IMG/VR virus record: IMGVR_UViG_3300032216_000330
Span: 1-29,984 of that record
Strand: one strand, 5' to 3'
From: a virus
Lineage: Duplodnaviria; Caudoviricetes
Length of the DNA stretch: 29,984 nucleotides
A program made the translations under genes and the position numbers. Positions 1-28,982 of this stretch are shown here, piece after piece (the stretch's first letter is position 1; every line of letters begins with the position of its first letter). The notes under the pieces are model-generated. The model had not been told where the DNA came from. It ran no database searches and saw only the letters and a program-made list of their open reading frames with translations.

Positions 1-3000
1 ATTTTCATCTTAGTAAGGTCCATCTCCATAAAGTTTCTTATAACCTTTTCCTTAGATGGTTTAATATCAACAGGCTCTCCCGTAAATCGGTCTTTGCCTG
101 TTGTTAACATATGGTCGATAGTAGATGATAAAGTGTCGAATAATTTAACTGCTGCTGAACGAACAAATTTCTCTTCCTGCTCTGACATATTTTTCTTTTC
201 TGTCTCCATCATCTTCATCATCTCTTCGTAAGTTAATGTAGAACCTTCAACACCTAATAATTCTTCTACCTGCTCACGCATTGATTCTGTTAACTTTTCT
301 TTCTGAGATTTCATCATCTCTTCTATATAAGCATCTGCAGCTTTTATCTCAATAGTTGGTTTAAAGCCTTTCATTGAAGAGCCTTTGATAGCTTGTTCAA
401 GGTCTGATGCTACTTCATTGTACTTCTCTATGTCATCAACTAATGATGGGTCTATTTTATTAAACTCCTCTCCTAACTTTACTAAATTGCCATCATATTT
501 GTTGCTTTTATTTTTAGATAGCTTTCTGATAGAATCTTTTAAAGCATTTCCTTTTGACAATTTGTTTTGATAATCTGCATCAGCAAAAATCTTCTCAGCG
601 TAATCAATGAATTTATTCAAATGCTCAAAGCTCTCTACATTTAAATTGTTGGCTCTCTTTAATAAAGCATTTACTTGAGCAGCAGATAACTTACCTGCCT
701 TTTTAATATTATCTATTACATCAGTGATTAGCTTTCTCTTCTCTTTGATATTGCCTTTCGCCAACTTTACCTCTTTGATGGTATTAGCAATCATCTTCTT
801 CTCGCTAATCTCTATCTTATCAGACTTAGCTTTGTCAATGATGTCATTGATTTTATCAACTGCTTTGTTTAGCGTTTCTTCATCTTTTACTTTAGCAATC
901 TCAGCCATCACTCTCGTTAAATCCTTACGAGTAAGATTGCCATATTCCTTGACAGAGTCAAAGTATTTTTTAATTGCTTTTACTTTTTCAGTAACACCTT
1001 TAGCACTTTCCTTAGCAGCCTTTAGCTCTGCCTTCATCTTCTCCTTAGCAGCTTTCTCCTCTGCTTTCGCTTTCTCTGCTTCTAACTTGGTCTTACTTAC
1101 CTCGATGATATCTTTGTTTGCATTGTCGATAATATCCGTTATCTTTTTAGAAGCACTCTCTAATGTCTTCTCATCTTTTACATTCTTGATAATGTCAATC
1201 ACTTTTAGCAAGTCCTTACGAGTAAGGTTTGCTACGTCTTTATTCTTAACAACAAAATCTCTGATTTTCTTGACTGCCTCTCTAACAGACGAAGCACCTT
1301 CCTTCGCAGCTTTAATCTCTAATTTAATTTGGTCCTTTAATGCTTGAGCTTCATTAACAGTTACCTCTTTCTCTTTCTTTCCTGTTATGGTCTCTGCTGA
1401 CGGACTTTGCTTCATCTTCTCGCCAAACGCCTCTTTGACATCACGAGTAATCTGCTCACGTTGTTGGTCGGTAGCGTTCTTATAAGCCTCGCTACCTTCA
1501 ACAATCTTCATTACGTTCTTCTCGATGGTTGTTTGCTTTGTCTTTCTGTCAAGCCCTCTTAGGATTTCACTATTGACATCCTCCATCATCTTATCGTAAC
1601 CTTCAACAGTTTCAGAAGAAACTTTCTCAGTCAACTCCTTCATTCCTTTAACGACATCATCAAACGACACCTTATTATCAGCAGCTACTTTAGTGATAGC
1701 TTCTTGCAATGTCATACCACCTTTTACAAGTACCTTCAATGACTTTACAATCGCTTTCATTACAGGAACAGCGATATTGACACCAAGATTTTCTTTTGAA
1801 AATTTAGTCAAGTCGTTATCAATTTTATCCAAGAAGTCATAAACCTTTCCAAGATTTGTTTGGTCTTTCGTATCAAGGTCTAATAACTCATCTACTTCTG
1901 CCTTTGCTTTTGTTGGTTTGTTTAATAAATCCTCAACAGCCTTTACCAACTCAGGATTAGAGCCATCTGCTTTTGCTTTGTGATATGCTTCGGAGATAGC
2001 TTTTTCTTGAGATGGGATAATTAAATCATTTAATTTTTCTTGAGGAATAATTAATATCTCGTGACCTTCTGTAAAACTTACTCCATCAAATCCCGATTTT
2101 AACAGCAAATTATTTAAAGATTCATTAAGACCTTCTACTGCTTTTGCTGAATTTAATTTATTTGCTTCAATAACTCTTGATTCTAAGTTTTCTAATAAAG
2201 AACCAAAATCTTGATTAGGATTTTCTTTTACTGCTTTCTCTAATGCTTTTTGAATATAGATTTCATTATTATCAAAAGAAGATTTTTTTTCTTCAAGTCT
2301 TTTTATCTCTTCTGATATCTCATTATATTCTCTATTGTTTTTTGATTTAGATAAAAGTTCTTTTAATTTATATATAGTTCCATCTACTTCTTTTGAGAAA
2401 GACAATGAATTAAGAGCTTCAGATACTGACATATCACCATTTAATAAATTCAATTTACTTGAATCTAAAAATGTGGACTTATCTCCATAATCAAAATTTT
2501 TAAAAAGATTGCTAAAATAAAATCCCGTTCCATACCTGCCTCTTGTTTGACCTTTTATTTTAGTAGGGTCAAATTTACTTATTACTTCAGAGCCATTATG
2601 TGCTATTAATCCAACAAGATTTCTAAGTTTAACTCCAATAGATTCTTTTCTTTTATTTACTATTGGCTCTAACGCCTTAGCTGTACTCTCAACATCTTTT
2701 AATGCTTCTACTTCTTGCGGCTTCGCAGGAGCGACACCTTCTTGGGGGTCATACTCAAACTTATTTTCGCCAACTTTTTTAAATCCGTTTTTCTCGTAAA
2801 AATCGCTTAACCTTTCTAAGTTAGTTTCAGCATCCAATTCATTTGTAGCGTCTAAAACTATTTTCTTGCCCGTTCTATCAGCTTCTGATTTTACTGTTTC
2901 AAGCACTTTTGTTCCTATGCCTTTACCACGATTTTCTTTTTTTACATAAACAGCAGTTAAACTTAAATCATTTCCTTTAGGAGTCAATAACACACTCGCA

Positions 3001-5864
3001 TCAGGATTTTCTTTTGCTACATTATCATTTACTTCTTTTGCTATAGTATAATCTGCATCTATTGGTTCTCCGCTTACTTCTTTCTGTTTTTCAAGAGTGA
3101 CACCTTCTTGGGTAGTTGCTTCTTGGGCGTTTCCTTCTCCCACTGTTGGCAGTTCCACTTGGGGTTGTTCTGTGCGTAACACGCCTTCCTCTGTTGTTGG
3201 CTCTTGAATGGCATTTTCTTCTTGTAGTTTAGATTGTTGTTTTTTTAAACTGTCTAATGTTTCTTGGTATAATTGTGGAAATTCTTCTCCATCTTTTTCA
3301 TATGCTTTTTTAGAATCCTCATACTCTTTTACTGCATCTGATATGTATTGCTCAGGATTGTTTTTGAGTAATTCTAATTTATCTTTAGTATATTGAGTGT
3401 ACTGCTCATAACTCGGCTTCTTACTAAAGAATCTAACTATTGGATTTTTGCTATCAAATTGTTTTTTTGCATCATTGTAATCTTCTTCATTATACTTTAA
3501 CTGAGTTTCTAAATATTCTTTATAAAAATTTAGACTAGATTTTACATCCTCATCTTGAACCTCATCAAGCGTCTTAGGCTTTGCAGTAGGTTCAGTAGGA
3601 GCAGTTTCAGCAGGTGCTTCAGCAGCAGCTTCGGGAGCAGCTACTTCACGCTTTTGCTTTGACAATTCTTCTAACTCATTATTAATCTCAGCAATCCTTT
3701 CGTTTTGTGGTTTAACTAAAGTTTCATCTTTGTTCTCTATCTTTTTCTTTAATGATGTTCTTTCTTTTAGCAATCCTAACATCTTTCTTTTTTGAGCCGC
3801 AGTATAATCATCAGGCAATTTTTCTAATAACCCAACAGACATATCTACATCGTTAAGATGTGCATCTTTTTCTTTCTCTGTCAGCTCTCCGTTAGCAACC
3901 TTTATATTTAAGTTCTCTTCGTATGCTTGACGTAAAACAGGATTTGTTAATGTCTTATAATTGTCAATAGTAGCATCGCTGATTTTTTCAAAGTTATTAT
4001 CCTTGTAAGCTGTCCCGATAGAATTTATACTTCCCATCATCGCACTTCCCACAGCCATATCTAATCCCGACTCTGCAACCTGTTTTAAATAGTCTCCTGC
4101 ATTATCAGGAAACTTAAACATCTCATCTTTCTTTGCTAAGTTGTATGATTCTTTAACAGCATCACCACTAACTTTCAATTCAACTCCCGTAGCAAATCCG
4201 TGAGCAAGGTTTCCTCCCGTTGTGATAAGACCACGATTCAAAGCAGACTTTACTTCATTGTCAGCAAACTCTTGAACGCTCTTTGCAGCAGTTTCGCTTC
4301 CCATCTTCTTCAAGATGTTTGCAACCATCGCCTTGCCGGGAGCAGTCTCTAAAAATTTATTCGTTGGAGAGTATTTCATAATAGCTGCATTGGCAAATCC
4401 TAATGCAGTAGCTACACCAACCTTCTCGTCTGTTCCAATATCTTTAAATGCAGGATTATCTTTCATCTCTTCCATCGCACCATCATATCCCGATGCAAAG
4501 AAAGCTGTGTATCCTGCCGCAGGATTAACCATAGAAGCTCCTATGGCAGGAAGAAAACCAACAACACCGAGAGCGTTCCTTGCAAGGAAATTTTCTTGTG
4601 CTTTCTTTTTGTATGCCTCACTTACGTCAAACTCAACATTTTCTTTTAATGCTTTCTTGCCTTCCTCAATCCCTTTCGTTACTTGCTCTTTCTCAACATT
4701 ACCCATAGCATTGCTTACCTTCCAAGCATCGCTTAATGATATGTCTCCACGTAAAGCCAAATCAGTAGCGTTGACAATAGCCTTTGCCTTTGAATCAACA
4801 TAAGCACCAACGTCCATCAACCCTGCTCCTATGCCATACAAACCTTCTGTAAGCGTATTTGCAGTTATACCATACCAAGTGCCTGCATCGGCAGTGCTTC
4901 GCGTGTATTTACCAACAGCCTCATCTAATCGCTCGTGGTTTTTCTTGTTAGCCGTTTGCATCTCAGCAAGTGCTGCCGTGCGTTTTGCTATCTCTTCTTT
5001 CTTTTGCGTTAGTAAGTTTAATCGTTCAGCATCAGGAGTCTTTTTTAAAGCCTCCTGCTCTGTTTTCATTTTAAAAATGTCGGCTGCTAAGTTTTTCTTT
5101 TCTAAGTTTATAGAAGAAGTTTCTTGATTGATAGCTTTGTTAGCATCATCAATATCTTTTTGGCTTCGGTATCTCTTGTAGTATTTATCATACTGAGAAA
5201 CCTCATTGTCAATCTTTGGTTTATTGGCATCAACAAATGCTTTAAGTTCATTGGAACTTTCAATGTTTCCTTTATCAGTAAATGAATCAATAGAGATAGT
5301 CTTTGTTTTACCATTAGGAGCTGTTACGTTTATAGCATCATATCCAAATCCTGCTTCTTTAAACTTAAACCCATAATCCCCAAACATACTTTCTAATTGT
5401 GGGACTACAATTTCTTTATCTTTTGTAGTTAAAGATGCATTAACTTCTTTTAAGGAATTATTAAAGTCTTGTTTAGAAACAAATGCTTTATCAGCATTAG
5501 GCTTTGATGGTAATGCCGATGAAGACTCTCCCGAAGGCGATTCCGTAGAACCTTGAGGCTCTTTTTTTTTTAATGCGTCAGGAATAATCTGCCCAACTTT
5601 AGCAAATTCATCTTGTTTATCTTCAGCAAATAAACTTTTAATACCACCGATTGCTCTATCAATTAATCCCGGCTCTTCTTTTTGAAAAGCAGACTTAAAT
5701 GTATCTTCTCCTGTTTCTAAGAATAAATCATTATCTAAGCCAAGATTATATAATGCTGATTGCTGTTCAGGAGTAGCAGTAGAAAATTTCTCAAAACTTG
5801 TAGCATCTGTAATTATACCTTGTTGCTTATACAAGTCATATAACTTTTGTAGTTTATCGTTCAT
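1..5864 (-). CDS. Giant polyvalent/ejection-type virion protein, >1950 aa, 3' end runs out of the window
   Basis: ATG at 5864-5862 (MNDKLQKLYDLYKQQG...), 12 nt after the stop of the 510-aa gene. My manual translation stays open to the window edge (...KVIRNFMEMDLTKMK), which explains its absence from the ORF track. It contains Gly/Ala-rich hydrophobic segments (~4020-4900), GNAT and ART-like domains and helical repeats. It is the last gene after the GNAT-small-medium ejection genes. Confidence 0.92.
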   Translation of the reverse strand, partial: MNDKLQKLYDLYKQQGIITDATSFEKFSTATPEQQSALYNLGLDNDLFLETGEDTFKSAFQKEEPGLIDRAIGGIKSLFAEDKQDEFAKVGQIIPDALKKKEPQGSTESPSGESSSALPSKPNADKAFVSKQDFNNSLKEVNASLTTKDKEIVVPQLESMFGDYGFKFKEAGFGYDAINVTAPNGKTKTISIDSFTDKGNIESSNELKAFVDANKPKIDNEVSQYDKYYKRYRSQKDIDDANKAINQETSSINLEKKNLAADIFKMKTEQEALKKTPDAERLNLLTQKKEEIAKRTAALAEMQTANKKNHERLDEAVGKYTRSTADAGTWYGITANTLTEGLYGIGAGLMDVGAYVDSKAKAIVNATDLALRGDISLSDAWKVSNAMGNVEKEQVTKGIEEGKKALKENVEFDVSEAYKKKAQENFLARNALGVVGFLPAIGASMVNPAAGYTAFFASGYDGAMEEMKDNPAFKDIGTDEKVGVATALGFANAAIMKYSPTNKFLETAPGKAMVANILKKMGSETAAKSVQEFADNEVKSALNRGLITTGGNLAHGFATGVELKVSGDAVKESYNLAKKDEMFKFPDNAGDYLKQVAESGLDMAVGSAMMGSINSIGTAYKDNNFEKISDATIDNYKTLTNPVLRQAYEENLNIKVANGELTEKEKDAHLNDVDMSVGLLEKLPDDYTAAQKRKMLGLLKERTSLKKKIENKDETLVKPQNERIAEINNELEELSKQKREVAAPEAAAEAPAETAPTEPTAKPKTLDEVQDEDVKSSLNFYKEYLETQLKYNEEDYNDAKKQFDSKNPIVRFFSKKPSYEQYTQYTKDKLELLKNNPEQYISDAVKEYEDSKKAYEKDGEEFPQLYQETLDSLKKQQSKLQEENAIQEPTTEEGVLRTEQPQVELPTVGEGNAQEATTQEGVTLEKQKEVSGEPIDADYTIAKEVNDNVAKENPDASVLLTPKGNDLSLTAVYVKKENRGKGIGTKVLETVKSEADRTGKKIVLDATNELDAETNLERLSDFYEKNGFKKVGENKFEYDPQEGVAPAKPQEVEALKDVESTAKALEPIVNKRKESIGVKLRNLVGLIAHNGSEVISKFDPTKIKGQTRGRYGTGFYFSNLFKNFDYGDKSTFLDSSKLNLLNGDMSVSEALNSLSFSKEVDGTIYKLKELLSKSKNNREYNEISEEIKRLEEKKSSFDNNEIYIQKALEKAVKENPNQDFGSLLENLESRVIEANKLNSAKAVEGLNESLNNLLLKSGFDGVSFTEGHEILIIPQEKLNDLIIPSQEKAISEAYHKAKADGSNPELVKAVEDLLNKPTKAKAEVDELLDLDTKDQTNLGKVYDFLDKIDNDLTKFSKENLGVNIAVPVMKAIVKSLKVLVKGGMTLQEAITKVAADNKVSFDDVVKGMKELTEKVSSETVEGYDKMMEDVNSEILRGLDRKTKQTTIEKNVMKIVEGSEAYKNATDQQREQITRDVKEAFGEKMKQSPSAETITGKKEKEVTVNEAQALKDQIKLEIKAAKEGASSVREAVKKIRDFVVKNKDVANLTRKDLLKVIDIIKNVKDEKTLESASKKITDIIDNANKDIIEVSKTKLEAEKAKAEEKAAKEKMKAELKAAKESAKGVTEKVKAIKKYFDSVKEYGNLTRKDLTRVMAEIAKVKDEETLNKAVDKINDIIDKAKSDKIEISEKKMIANTIKEVKLAKGNIKEKRKLITDVIDNIKKAGKLSAAQVNALLKRANNLNVESFEHLNKFIDYAEKIFADADYQNKLSKGNALKDSIRKLSKNKSNKYDGNLVKLGEEFNKIDPSLVDDIEKYNEVASDLEQAIKGSSMKGFKPTIEIKAADAYIEEMMKSQKEKLTESMREQVEELLGVEGSTLTYEEMMKMMETEKKNMSEQEEKFVRSAAVKLFDTLSSTIDHMLTTGKDRFTGEPVDIKPSKEKVIRNFMEMDLTKMK
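774..1319 (-). repeat. Two tandem helical protein repeats (97-codon offset) inside the giant protein
   Basis: EIKAAK...NLTRKDLLKVIDIIKNVKDEKTLESASKKITDIIDNA vs ELKAAK...NLTRKDLTRVMAEIAKVKDEETLNKAVDKINDIIDKA. The 14-mer tccttacgagtaag occurs at 922 and 1213 (291 nt apart). Confidence 0.85.
2020..2630 (-). other. ADP-ribosyltransferase-like domain (ART-PolyVal type) within the giant protein
   Basis: Motifs in canonical order: AHNGS..KFDP (HNGS 2589-2600), YGTGFYFS (2511-2534), DYG, then GFDGV..GHEILI (GFDG 2082-2093, Glu 2058-2060). About 110 helical residues are inserted in the middle. Confidence 0.65.
2708..3112. repeat. 39-nt imperfect direct repeat (2708-2746 and 3074-3112) bracketing the GNAT domain
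   Basis: ctacttcttgcggcttcgcaggagcgacaccttcttggg vs ttacttctttctgtttttcaagagtgacaccttcttggg: 31/39 identical, offset 366 nt (122 codons). Confidence 0.85.
2750..3070 (-). other. GNAT acetyltransferase domain within the giant protein
   Basis: LTAVYVKKENRGKGIGTKVL (acetyl-CoA motif A, RGKGIG at 2913-2930), KIVLDA strand and LSDFYEKNGF motif B. Confidence 0.85.
3074..3214 (-). CDS. Putative overprinted 46-aa basic protein MPFKSQQQRKACYAQNNPKWNCQQWEKETPKKQLPKKVSLLKNRKK (+1 frame of the giant ORF)
   Basis: ATG at 3214, TAA at 3076-3074. It has an A-rich Bacteroidota-style leader (A at -3 and -6). Divergence of the duplicated 3' end is mostly synonymous in this frame. Confidence 0.65.
   Translation of the reverse strand: MPFKSQQQRKACYAQNNPKWNCQQWEKETPKKQLPKKVSLLKNRKK
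5497..5573 (-). other. Candidate programmed -1 frameshift / transcriptional slippage site (A10) with a short transframe tail
   Basis: TTA AAA AAA AAA GAG (T10 at 5562-5571 on +). The -1 frame reads RASRFYGIAFGRVFIGITIKA* (stop 5499-5497). Confidence 0.45.
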
Positions 5865-19700: not shown

Positions 19701-20789
19701 TTATATTCGTTTCGCACTGCGAATTTTTAAGTTTCTGCCGGAGTCAGGATTCACAGACCTAACCTGAAAACCGTCAGTTGACTTAGTAACTTCCGGTGCT
19801 CTGCGTTCAGACATATTAATGTTCTTAGTCTTACGCATTACATCTTCCGTTGCATCAGCCAAACCCTGCTCGTAGAAGTATTTTGCAAACTTCTCAGGGT
19901 TCATCGCTACTGCTAAAGACCTATGGTATCCTGCTGCGTCTTTCATTAATCCATTCTCATCCAAAAATCTATTAATAAAGTTTGATGGATTTGATTGGAG
20001 TTTCTTTAACTCAGCAGCATCCGAAGGAGCGAAAGCAATCTTTTTGTCGTTGATATTAAATTCAAAACCTTTGAATCCTCCATCAAAAACTTCGTTTGTC
20101 TTCTGCTCAAACCAATTTCTCTTACGGTTGTTTTCTTCTTCTACGGTCTTAGCCTCACTAAGATATTGCTTATACAATTCATACTGCTCTTTCTCTTCAT
20201 TAGAAACTGATGGTCCACTTGACTCAAGCGGCATCTTGTATTTCTCTTTCTGAGTGTTGAAGTATTTCTTTGCTTCAGCAACAGCTTTCTTTTTTGCAAT
20301 CTTTACTTTCTTTACCGTTGACTCATCATCAAGGTCCTCATCGTATCGGTAATCATCCAACATTACATCTACATCTTCTTCGTCGATACCTTCTTGAGTA
20401 GAAAGCAAGTAATTTTTTAATAAATCATCCGAGTCCATTGAATCGTAGTCCTTGTTTAATTTAAGGAAGTCATCAAATCCTCTGCCTGTTTCTTTCTTAT
20501 ATTTAAGATAGGCAGCTACATCTTCAGGTAACTGTTCAGATTCTTTACGTTCAGCCATTAACTCATCGAATGAGCTAATTTGCTTATTGTATCTTTTTCC
20601 AATATATGAAAGAACGTCTTCTTCTTTTAATTCCACAGGTTGCTCTTGTGGTATTATTTCTTGTGGTTGCTCTGCTACTACTTCAGGAGTTTCATTATTC
20701 ATTTCCTGCTCGTGTTTTTCAAGCAACGCTTTTTCTACTTCTTGGACACTTTTTGGTTCAGTGTCTAATGCTCTTACTTTAAATTCCAT
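19701..20789 (-). CDS. Capsid scaffolding protein (362 aa)
   Basis: Very acidic low-complexity N-terminus, helical core and basic C-terminal tip (NLKIRSAKRI). It lies between portal and capsid. Confidence 0.75.
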   Translation of the reverse strand: MEFKVRALDTEPKSVQEVEKALLEKHEQEMNNETPEVVAEQPQEIIPQEQPVELKEEDVLSYIGKRYNKQISSFDELMAERKESEQLPEDVAAYLKYKKETGRGFDDFLKLNKDYDSMDSDDLLKNYLLSTQEGIDEEDVDVMLDDYRYDEDLDDESTVKKVKIAKKKAVAEAKKYFNTQKEKYKMPLESSGPSVSNEEKEQYELYKQYLSEAKTVEEENNRKRNWFEQKTNEVFDGGFKGFEFNINDKKIAFAPSDAAELKKLQSNPSNFINRFLDENGLMKDAAGYHRSLAVAMNPEKFAKYFYEQGLADATEDVMRKTKNINMSERRAPEVTKSTDGFQVRSVNPDSGRNLKIRSAKRI

Positions 20790-25782: not shown

Positions 25783-26257
25783 CAGGAATGTATTTTAAAA
25801 ATATAACTTGTATCAATCTTGAAGAGTCTCCCTGTCCAAAGTTTTGATAAATGTTTCGTGAGTGAGGCATATTAGACTCAAAGCCAAACATTCTATTATA
25901 CTTTGAGTAAGCGGTCATCGCTATGCTGCCGTCCTCTTCATATATTGTTGTTCCATCCTCTTTCGGATGTTCTTTATTAAGGTATAGTATCAACGTCACA
26001 TCTCCCATCATCTCATCACTATGGATGAAGTTAGGTTCTTCTTGACCCATTGGCGACTTGCGAACAAAATTGTAAACAACAACAAACTCAGGAAAGTATT
26101 GCGTAGCGAATCGAGCAAACTCATCATCATACGGTCTTTGTTGTATCCCTTTGAATAACTGCTCTCCTACCTGAATATCATAGAAGTCATTCTTTAAAAT
26201 CCTTTCTACATAAGTATCAGGATTCTTAATGACATTATCCATTAGGATTATATTCAT
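25760..26257 (-). CDS. 2OG-Fe(II) oxygenase superfamily protein (165 aa)
   Basis: HxD (FIHSD), TLILYLN..GT, YNR..F....HSR distal His and terminal RL.QV.F Arg: the full metal/2-oxoglutarate motif set. Confidence 0.8.
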   Translation of the reverse strand: MNIILMDNVIKNPDTYVERILKNDFYDIQVGEQLFKGIQQRPYDDEFARFATQYFPEFVVVYNFVRKSPMGQEEPNFIHSDEMMGDVTLILYLNKEHPKEDGTTIYEEDGSIAMTAYSKYNRMFGFESNMPHSRNIYQNFGQGDSSRLIQVIFLKYIPDEEYEGD

Positions 26258-26817
26258 AGTTTGATTGTTATTTGATGGTCAAACATTCGATATAACTTCT
26301 CTCCATCAACCGTGAACTCATATTCACTATCGGGAGCAAAGCATACTTTATCTCCTGCTTTTACACCTCTACTTATTAAGTATTCATTTGGATATTTCAT
26401 AACACCCATCAATGGTTCTTCTGAGAATGGTTTGCTGATATAGGATTCTGTTGCAGGGATAGGTTTCACGAAACAGTATTTATCGTGCGTACACCAATCA
26501 CCATCTTTCTTGTAAAGGAAGAATTGGTCCATCTCAATAAAGAACTTATCGTCCTTAAAGAAACTCTTACCACTCTTTTGTCTTCCTTTCATATCATTAT
26601 AGAATTTGAAAGCGTTGTGATGTACTAATAATGTATCTCCCGGAGCAATAGGTCCTTCGTATCCCAATGGCACTTCAATAACCTCAGCATATCTGTTGGA
26701 AAACTTATGGTCTTCCTCAGATGTGCTTACTATTAGTTCTATGCCACCTATCTCTTTTGTATTGTCGTATCGCTTTCCTTTGTTTGGTCTTGCGATGAAA
26801 TAGAATGGCGACCTCAT
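26254..26817 (-). CDS. Tandem GroES/Cpn10-like protein (187 aa)
   Basis: Two GroES-like halves: FIARP..GGIELI..AEVIEVP..IAPGDTLLV and CFVKP..GVMKY..GVKAGDKVCF..EFTVDGEKLYRM. Confidence 0.65.
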   Translation of the reverse strand: MRSPFYFIARPNKGKRYDNTKEIGGIELIVSTSEEDHKFSNRYAEVIEVPLGYEGPIAPGDTLLVHHNAFKFYNDMKGRQKSGKSFFKDDKFFIEMDQFFLYKKDGDWCTHDKYCFVKPIPATESYISKPFSEEPLMGVMKYPNEYLISRGVKAGDKVCFAPDSEYEFTVDGEKLYRMFDHQITIKL

Positions 26818-28640: not shown

Positions 28641-28982
28641 TTAGTTTAGAGTTAGAAGATATAATGTCTTGTCAACTAAGCCAAGCATCTCATCCATAAT
28701 ATTCTGCAACTCCGATGGGTAGTTGTTTCTCTCTGAGTCAATCGTTGACTGCATCTCCTTTAAATGAGTGATAGCATCCATATTCTTTGCTTCAGGGATT
28801 ACAATCTCCACTCTCTTAAACCTACCAAAGTAAGCCTCAGTGAATGTATCGGTTAAATCAAGGATGCCATCATAGTATCCGTTTAATGCCTTATGCTCTG
28901 CAAACGATGTCGTCTGCAAATGTGCAATGTGCATTGTGTCTCTTGAATGGAACAAAGTCCCGATGAATTTTCCCGGTGTCAT
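28641..28982 (-). CDS. Ferritin/Dps-like four-helix bundle protein (DUF5856-like, 113 aa)
   Basis: HIAHLQT.SFAEHKAL..YY......D.F.EAY.G and LQNI.DEM....K..YLL motifs. Confidence 0.75.
   Translation of the reverse strand: MTPGKFIGTLFHSRDTMHIAHLQTTSFAEHKALNGYYDGILDLTDTFTEAYFGRFKRVEIVIPEAKNMDAITHLKEMQSTIDSERNNYPSELQNIMDEMLGLVDKTLYLLTLN

Follow-up and report, generated by a model that had tools for sequence, protein, structure and literature searches.

A selected small gene nested in the +1 frame of a giant phage gene belongs to a large phage family

A small gene under selection in its own reading frame, and belonging to a huge phage family, appears to have been engulfed by a giant virion-module gene that reads the same DNA as an acidic linker; its product is likely a basic, two-helix, head-internal peptide that binds DNA. 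We put the probability of this reading as a whole at about 0.55. That the nested frame is a real gene, as an earlier note on this DNA had proposed, is almost certainly correct and strongly supported by frame-specific pN/pS ratios, a fixed ATG and free-standing homologues.

The stretch of DNA analysed here (the window, 29,984 bases) is a whole virus contig. Its minus strand carries a head and virion module with terminase, portal, a 362-aa scaffold-like gene, the major capsid gene, virion proteins (including a crAss-type muzzle domain) and a giant gene (3..5864, minus strand) of more than 1954 aa that is ended by the contig edge. A homologous locus in the Flavobacterium phage elemoA bears the GenBank note ‘structural protein’, and the closest cultured relatives with the nested ORF are Flavobacterium phages of the genus Elemovirus (68 of the 73 GenBank records matched). 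The enzyme cassettes of these giant proteins vary, as do their flanks: the window encodes a GNAT acetyltransferase (2747..3073, minus strand; PF13508, E = 9e-9, giant-protein residues 963-1030) between two copies of the small gene’s tail, L193 an ADP-ribosyltransferase and elemoA a DUF3293 domain. The scaffold-like gene (19701..20789, minus strand), so called for its position between portal and major capsid gene, matches PHROG 16786, which is annotated as of unknown function. It holds no nested copy in the window, but in a sister lineage homologues of it carry the small gene, as its second host. Also beside the head genes, at 26254-26817 and 28641-28982, lie matches to a GroES-like co-chaperonin and to a Dps-like ‘starvation-inducible regulator’ PHROG.

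The nested gene (3074..3214, minus strand) belongs to the two-cysteine subtype of what we call the MPFKS family. As the earlier note had described, it is a 46-codon ORF that starts with its own ATG at 3214 and stops with its own TAA at 3074, lying in +1 relative to the giant ORF (5864-3); the 46-aa peptide contains 13 K/R and 2 D/E residues. In the host frame, the same DNA (3074..3215, minus strand) reads as an E/Q/V/T-rich linker of the giant protein, Glu making up 21% of the linker across nested copies. The length of the ORF lies within chance, as the same giant gene has a 71-codon stop-free +1 stretch elsewhere (5323-5111, minus strand). That stretch holds a 40-aa ATG ORF after an AAA leader, for which no recurring homologue was seen. 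According to the available text of PMC6847099, Flavobacterium starts favour A at -3, -6, -12 and -13 and have no Shine-Dalgarno motif. The predicted start region of the nested gene (3215..3240, minus strand), which lies inside host codons and likewise has no Shine-Dalgarno motif, is A-rich, with A at -3 and -6 and TAAA at -17 to -14; it has none at -12/-13, and its start-site score falls at the 77th percentile of control out-of-frame ATGs. The A-rich leader pointed out earlier is thus present but not outstanding in the window itself. Since neither length nor leader of this ORF goes beyond chance, the case rests on comparison.

Across the family, the leader signal is strong. AAA at -13..-11 precedes 76% of 66 nested copies. 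For the remaining +1 ATGs within these genes the figure is 7% (of 2,528), and for ordinary starts 39% (of 219). Judged by the full-matrix leader score, nested copies are intermediate (median -2.2, compared with 6.5 for true starts and -8.5 for controls). Leaders resembling Shine-Dalgarno sequences occur in 3/3 nested copies from unrelated, GC-richer phages versus 0/79 in the window’s family. The A-rich leader would be the site where ribosomes initiate internally on the late mRNA. Contigs from RNA run X6 cover the nested ORF, although contigs cannot show expression. Programmed frameshifting out of the host gene, yielding a truncated host protein with a basic tail, might account for the open +1 stretch that starts 0-19 codons before the ATG, and for a database protein (P0005) that joins the peptide to a scaffold-like linker. 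Yet ATG-CCN is invariant in all 117 of 117 nested rows and follows a start-type leader, free homologues begin with the identical Met, and fusions carry the family domain at their N-terminus, leaving frameshifting very improbable.

Selection acts on the small frame. Among 49 non-redundant of 71 copies, pN/pS was 0.18-0.29 in the small frame as opposed to 1.14-1.38 in the host frame, and the third position of the small-frame codons was the most variable (0.78 versus 0.39 and 0.33 bits). Because this set was recruited by peptide similarity, which favours low pN, we performed three further tests. Across 44 close scaffold pairs, host pS fell from 0.29 outside the overlap to 0.046 inside, and the small frame (pS 0.249, pN 0.028) resembled a conserved host domain (0.29 and 0.025). 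Variants recruited by DNA from four public runs were synonymous in the small frame in 16 of 33 cases, with 16% expected (P = 2e-5, transition bias ignored), and in the host frame in 7 of 33; the lone apparent stop among them pairs with a neighbouring change of the same depth in the same run, the two together giving Trp. Lastly, of 80 contigs picked by scaffold similarity, 34 were searched over their full length. Sixteen matched, 15.6-19.1 kb downstream, and 15 of these copies were intact and nested in the giant gene, the other (L202) being cut to 33 aa on a contig with an upstream frameshift. The 18 negatives comprise 17 contigs ending less than 14.5 kb downstream and one that ends inside the giant gene before the site. 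In one scaffold host (L065), a stop interrupts the overlap.

As a negative control, a recurring +1 frame in the terminase gene gave a pN/pS of 2.0 and stops in 13/30. This ORF, tried as a second conserved nested gene, proved to be a shadow frame, and the starts and ends of the other recurring +1 ORFs, which lie in terminase, portal and capsid genes, are not constant. Such behaviour bears on the idea that the nested ORF is untranslated, being either the shadow of a conserved linker or a conserved DNA or RNA site that serves recombination only. Stop-free +1 stretches of its length do occur by chance, and DNA similarity among relatives does peak at the small ORF; however, variation follows the small-frame codons, the host linker is not conserved, the true shadow frame behaves oppositely and free protein homologues exist. 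We consider an untranslated ORF largely refuted and the least probable of the readings weighed here. The host linker, for its part, appears to be under no detectable protein-level constraint except that of staying open. The codon for Phe3 is TTC in 49/49 and 31/31 nested copies; in free copies from AT-rich loci it is TTT in 18 of 21, and TTT-AAR would create a host-frame stop. Separately, Q/E/P/T-rich linkers resembling +1 ORFs occur in the giant genes of L196, L199, L014 and L178, and basic +1 ORFs with a shared end motif lie ~700 nt behind the nested gene, near 5675-5693, in L225, L227, L228 and L230.

To gauge how the gene is distributed, viral contigs were scanned with alignment A1, and the best 80 of 189 confirmed stretches (about 3,100 estimated) were taken. 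All of these best 80 encode the full ATG-to-stop peptide: 64 are nested near the 5’ end of the scaffold-like gene, 13 lie in giant ORFs (nine of which BLAST-match the window’s giant and four assigned by size) and three are free. A second scan, which included cysteine-free types, scored 79 of 80 loci, five on contigs already seen. Thirty of the 79 are free, 18 in giant, 14 in scaffold and five in other large ORFs, the GC-rich ‘nested_other’ cases L248 and L258 being left out of the nested count; the remaining loci comprise seven partly overlapped by the end of the upstream gene, three fusions and two doubtful cases. The host reading frame is identical in every nested or overlapped case. In L253, L255, L259, L260, L271 and L280, the C-terminus of the upstream gene reaches 27-42 codons into the small gene in the frame used by full hosts; these loci are possible intermediates of engulfment. 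Of 50 contigs searched, 32 matched, among them 9/9 of those with a completeness of 90% or more; these each carry a single intact copy, one of them plus an extra 5’ fragment. Giant ORFs of three unrelated phages (49-64% GC), which gave no match to this group’s capsid gene, also nest the small gene. All 44 matches in a prokaryote genome collection lay in metagenome-assembled contigs, and therefore fit a viral family. Sampling by the N-terminal part of the giant gene returned no relatives, and the tail DNA pattern used as query found 0 contigs.

The family extends far beyond these hosts. A profile search returned 2,777 clusters at E ≤ 0.001, with members in phages of Actinobacteria, cyanobacteria and Bacteroidetes. 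Free copies, which bear out the stand-alone MPFKS genes mentioned in the earlier note, adjoin terminase, portal, scaffold, protease or capsid genes: gp4 of Gordonia phage MScarn sits between small and large terminase, and gp10 of both PBI1 and Patience follows the portal gene, exceptions being some free copies by tail, lysis or nucleotide-metabolism genes. Unannotated free copies are present in Synechococcus phage S-CBS2, Prochlorococcus phage P-RSP2 and phage C75C1 (L085:3501-3608, L086:3501-3620 and L089:3501-3602). At L082:4576-5800, a free copy lies upstream of terminase amid other small K/R-rich ORFs, similar to Patience gp10-12 and gp17. Among 149 new top profile hits, the domain starts at residue 1-2 in 132, and 69 are fusions of 90 aa or more. 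In L246, the domain begins a 1,495-aa ORF. A few fusions carry InPase PF18823, DUF5661, ParB-like or DnaJ domains, and 61 of 71 fused tails gave no Pfam hit above or near the cut-off. P0128, possibly a chimera of the assembly, joins the domain to the C-terminal domain of translation initiation factor IF3. A K-x-A motif follows within 10 residues of the domain end in 28 of 67 fusions (P0012-P0160; background 8% of windows), and ES in eight (background 2.5%); these could be maturation-protease sites or the domain’s own lysine-rich end.

The peptide itself has an invariant MPFKS..Q and W; net charge has a median of +11 to +13 in all classes, and nested peptides measure 39-68 aa. Pfam has no family for it, with scattered weak hits in 1-3 of 35 rows, and sequence searches of the PDB gave nothing relevant, the hits of A3 being summed 3-bit matches to designed beta-propeller repeats. 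The ESM Atlas returned unnamed clusters of 44-47 aa at 0.93 and DUF3008 at 0.88; the latter is absent from the Pfam scans, and the likeness is a lead only.

These data speak to the direction of origin. The available text of PMC8227390 sets out a distribution criterion, according to which de novo overprinted frames are narrower in distribution and have no remote homologues. Here, with 2,777 clusters, the small frame is the more widely distributed and hence the older, and the linker reading of the host came later; the small gene was engulfed, and the description of it as overprinted in the giant ORF has to be reversed. Free copies contain about five stops in the host-used frame, which is open in 1/30, while the other frame is open in 13/30; nesting therefore needed recoding. 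The sole use of one frame would fit either the spread of a cassette recoded once or a selective advantage of an acidic linker.

A second, partial copy of the tail clarifies how the region evolves. The 39 nt at 2746-2708 (2708..2746, minus strand) comprise the last 13 codons with the stop and are a direct repeat of 3112-3074. They differ by eight substitutions in six codons and, just as had been claimed, four of the six changed codons are synonymous in the small frame (TCA/TCG, TTG/CTG, AGA/CGC and TAA/TAG), the others being K/R and N/S. Counted by substitution, 5/8 are synonymous against 20% expected (P = 0.01, transition bias ignored). The second tail has no start of a gene, however, and was ruled out as a second gene or selected copy. 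In L177, the motif found just after tail 2 in the window comes immediately after the intact gene, a run X2 contig has an intact tail with at least six of the eight letters that mark tail 2, and contigs from runs X2 and X3 (records 9 and 18) depart from the window exactly at 2709. Together with the missing start, these junctions identify tail 2 as the relic end of another allele at a putative module exchange point. The synonymous bias noted earlier is hence real, but it reflects functional copies before recombination rather than selection on the second copy.

Similar relics recur elsewhere. The ADP-ribosyltransferase cassette of L193 lies between tails identical at 38/39 bases, and partial copies flank cassettes in 5/29 giant loci plus L201. 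Taken with the similarity peak on the small ORF, this supports the earlier suggestion of a recombination anchor, and we infer that cassettes are exchanged by crossover in or beside the nested gene. The small ORF, as the most conserved DNA among diverged giant genes, would serve as the crossover point for enzyme cassettes; swaps of GNAT (window) or ADP-ribosyltransferase (L193) would leave partial repeats, and a unit recoded to be stop-free in the host frame would be portable as an in-frame cassette.

The gene may also have moved between hosts. In quick trees of scaffold and capsid, scaffold-nested and giant-nested phages are separated by one change (SH-aLRT 99 and 97), the trees being unrooted with respect to the direction of that move. 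Each of the four peptide subtypes is represented in giant and in scaffold genes, with as many as 29/29 residues identical across the two hosts, hinting at possible allele exchange between them; in an AU test on 42 columns, scaffold-nested peptides as one clade were not rejected (p-AU 0.28). Three contigs of the same family (L222, L244 and L270) carry a free copy a few bases behind the giant’s stop; the capsid tree includes one of these and places it among the giant-nested phages, which suggests an escape from nesting.

As for function, a role in the virion module is probable. Basic charge, a head-module context in unrelated phages and N-terminal fusion together point to a head-internal peptide with a universal ligand, which would most simply be DNA. 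Whether the peptide is a DNA-binding core peptide stands at even odds in our judgement, its DNA binding being predicted from charge. The structure model has helices at 6-15 and 22-28 and a flexible basic tail (mean pLDDT 74, pTM 0.38), and the peptides are as small (39-68 aa when nested) and as strongly positive as a core peptide would be. The DNA-condensing or core role proposed in the earlier note is thus plausible; its alternative, a chaperone, is not supported. Patience gp10 is a distant homologue: one of three profiles matched it at E = 6e-4 (database size 110), the other two at 0.03 and 0.14. PMC4324244 names it among the virion proteins (Table 1), with one particle spectrum (Table S1). 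The Patience gp4 capsid accessory family was dropped as a lead, as gp4 is unmatched by the three profiles.

Two other roles for a real nested gene deserve consideration. The peptide could serve as a packaging tag or assembly adaptor whose partner is a head protein (scaffold, portal or capsid interior) and not DNA. The prevalence of N-terminal placement and long fusions among the top hits would suit such a tag, as would cargo-like partners (InPase PF18823, DUF5661, ParB-like), the 1,495-aa ORF, and an invariant MPFKS..Q and W that look like a binding motif. But head proteins are unrelated across the phages of Actinobacteria, cyanobacteria and Bacteroidetes, so that a universal ligand fits better, and most fused tails (61/71) match no family. 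We think this role unlikely; the score of 0.00 from a complex prediction of the peptide with two capsid subunits tells neither for nor against it. Still less likely is a late peptide outside the virion that acts on the host, be it on nucleoid, ribosome, RNA polymerase or a defence system. Copies of cluster B mycobacteriophages outside the head module would agree with it, but all nested copies belong to structural-module genes, the free copies that were mapped are mostly neighbours of head genes, and K/R-rich peptides yield few tryptic spectra. Spectral counts do favour a host-directed peptide in the case of Patience, where gp10 gave 4 and 2 spectra in infected cells versus 1 in particles (PMC4324244). 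Returning to the DNA-binding head peptide, one may tentatively extend it, at well under even odds, to a roaming nested gene: an essential head peptide whose stop-free cassette moves between giant, scaffold and free locations, acting as a recombination hub, and whose same 40 residues, placed at the N-terminus of thousands of other phage proteins, would load these into the head. If the domain is such a head-loading tag, this would explain many unannotated fusions.

The findings imply that a near-universal gene of an abundant group of aquatic Bacteroidetes phages is invisible to annotation; neither of two nested GenBank records examined lists the small gene. In addition, the overlap is a clean natural example of one that arose when an old gene was engulfed, not when a new one was invented; its free, partly overlapped and fully nested forms can be compared, as can its two hosts. 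The gene is present in cultured phages (68 Flavobacterium elemo records, with 486 actinophage records matching the distant form), making its expression and function directly testable. Our literature search, conducted outside subscription papers and bioRxiv supplements, found no description of the nested gene.

Several known systems resemble parts of this arrangement. PHROG 1375, of unknown function, includes MScarn gp4 and Mycobacterium phage Barnyard gp9 and shares the core FKS..Q...a....A..W..ET..LP. It was matched by 6/10 members of alignment A1 (best E = 1e-4), by the nested L193 copy at 0.012 and by the free L082 copy at 2e-4, and MScarn gp4 in turn matches our profiles at E of about 1e-6. 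The window peptide, which had 0 hits against PHROG 1375, differs in being of the two-cysteine subtype and nested instead of an annotated free gene. Patience gp10, gp11, gp12, gp17 and gp111 are likewise small, K/R-rich and encoded between portal and protease, but free-standing; the same source, in its available parts, reports two embedded out-of-frame ORFs found by mass spectrometry and not clearly conserved (PMC4324244). Polyvalent proteins (PMC5512222), in the text available, are comparable to the giant host in carrying swappable enzyme domains, here in a virion module. That paper suggests cassette recombination, and a term search of its main text shows ‘overlapping’ to be absent and no exchange point formed by a nested gene. 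De novo overprinted viral genes, as covered by the available text of PMC8227390, share the internal same-strand +1 overlap; here, by contrast, relatives of the small frame number in the thousands, and the newer reading is that of the host linker.

The closest parallel is with embedded spanins such as lambda Rz1 in Rz (PMC6139136), where a small gene likewise lies wholly in the +1 frame, in a flexible linker of its host. The nested peptide sequence has no hydrophobic signal stretch; unlike spanins, the peptide lacks a lipoprotein signal or membrane anchor and is encoded outside the lysis cassette, the endolysin gene being 24 kb away and the host a structural-module protein of more than 1954 aa. 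Embedded, overlapped and separated spanin architectures exist, the embedded one thought to derive from the separated one, yet in the accessible part of that survey no family joins embedded with overlapped or separated members, and Rz1 is always found in its partner (PMC6139136). The MPFKS family, by contrast, has members in all three states, and its nested ones occupy two or more unrelated host genes and also occur in unrelated phages.
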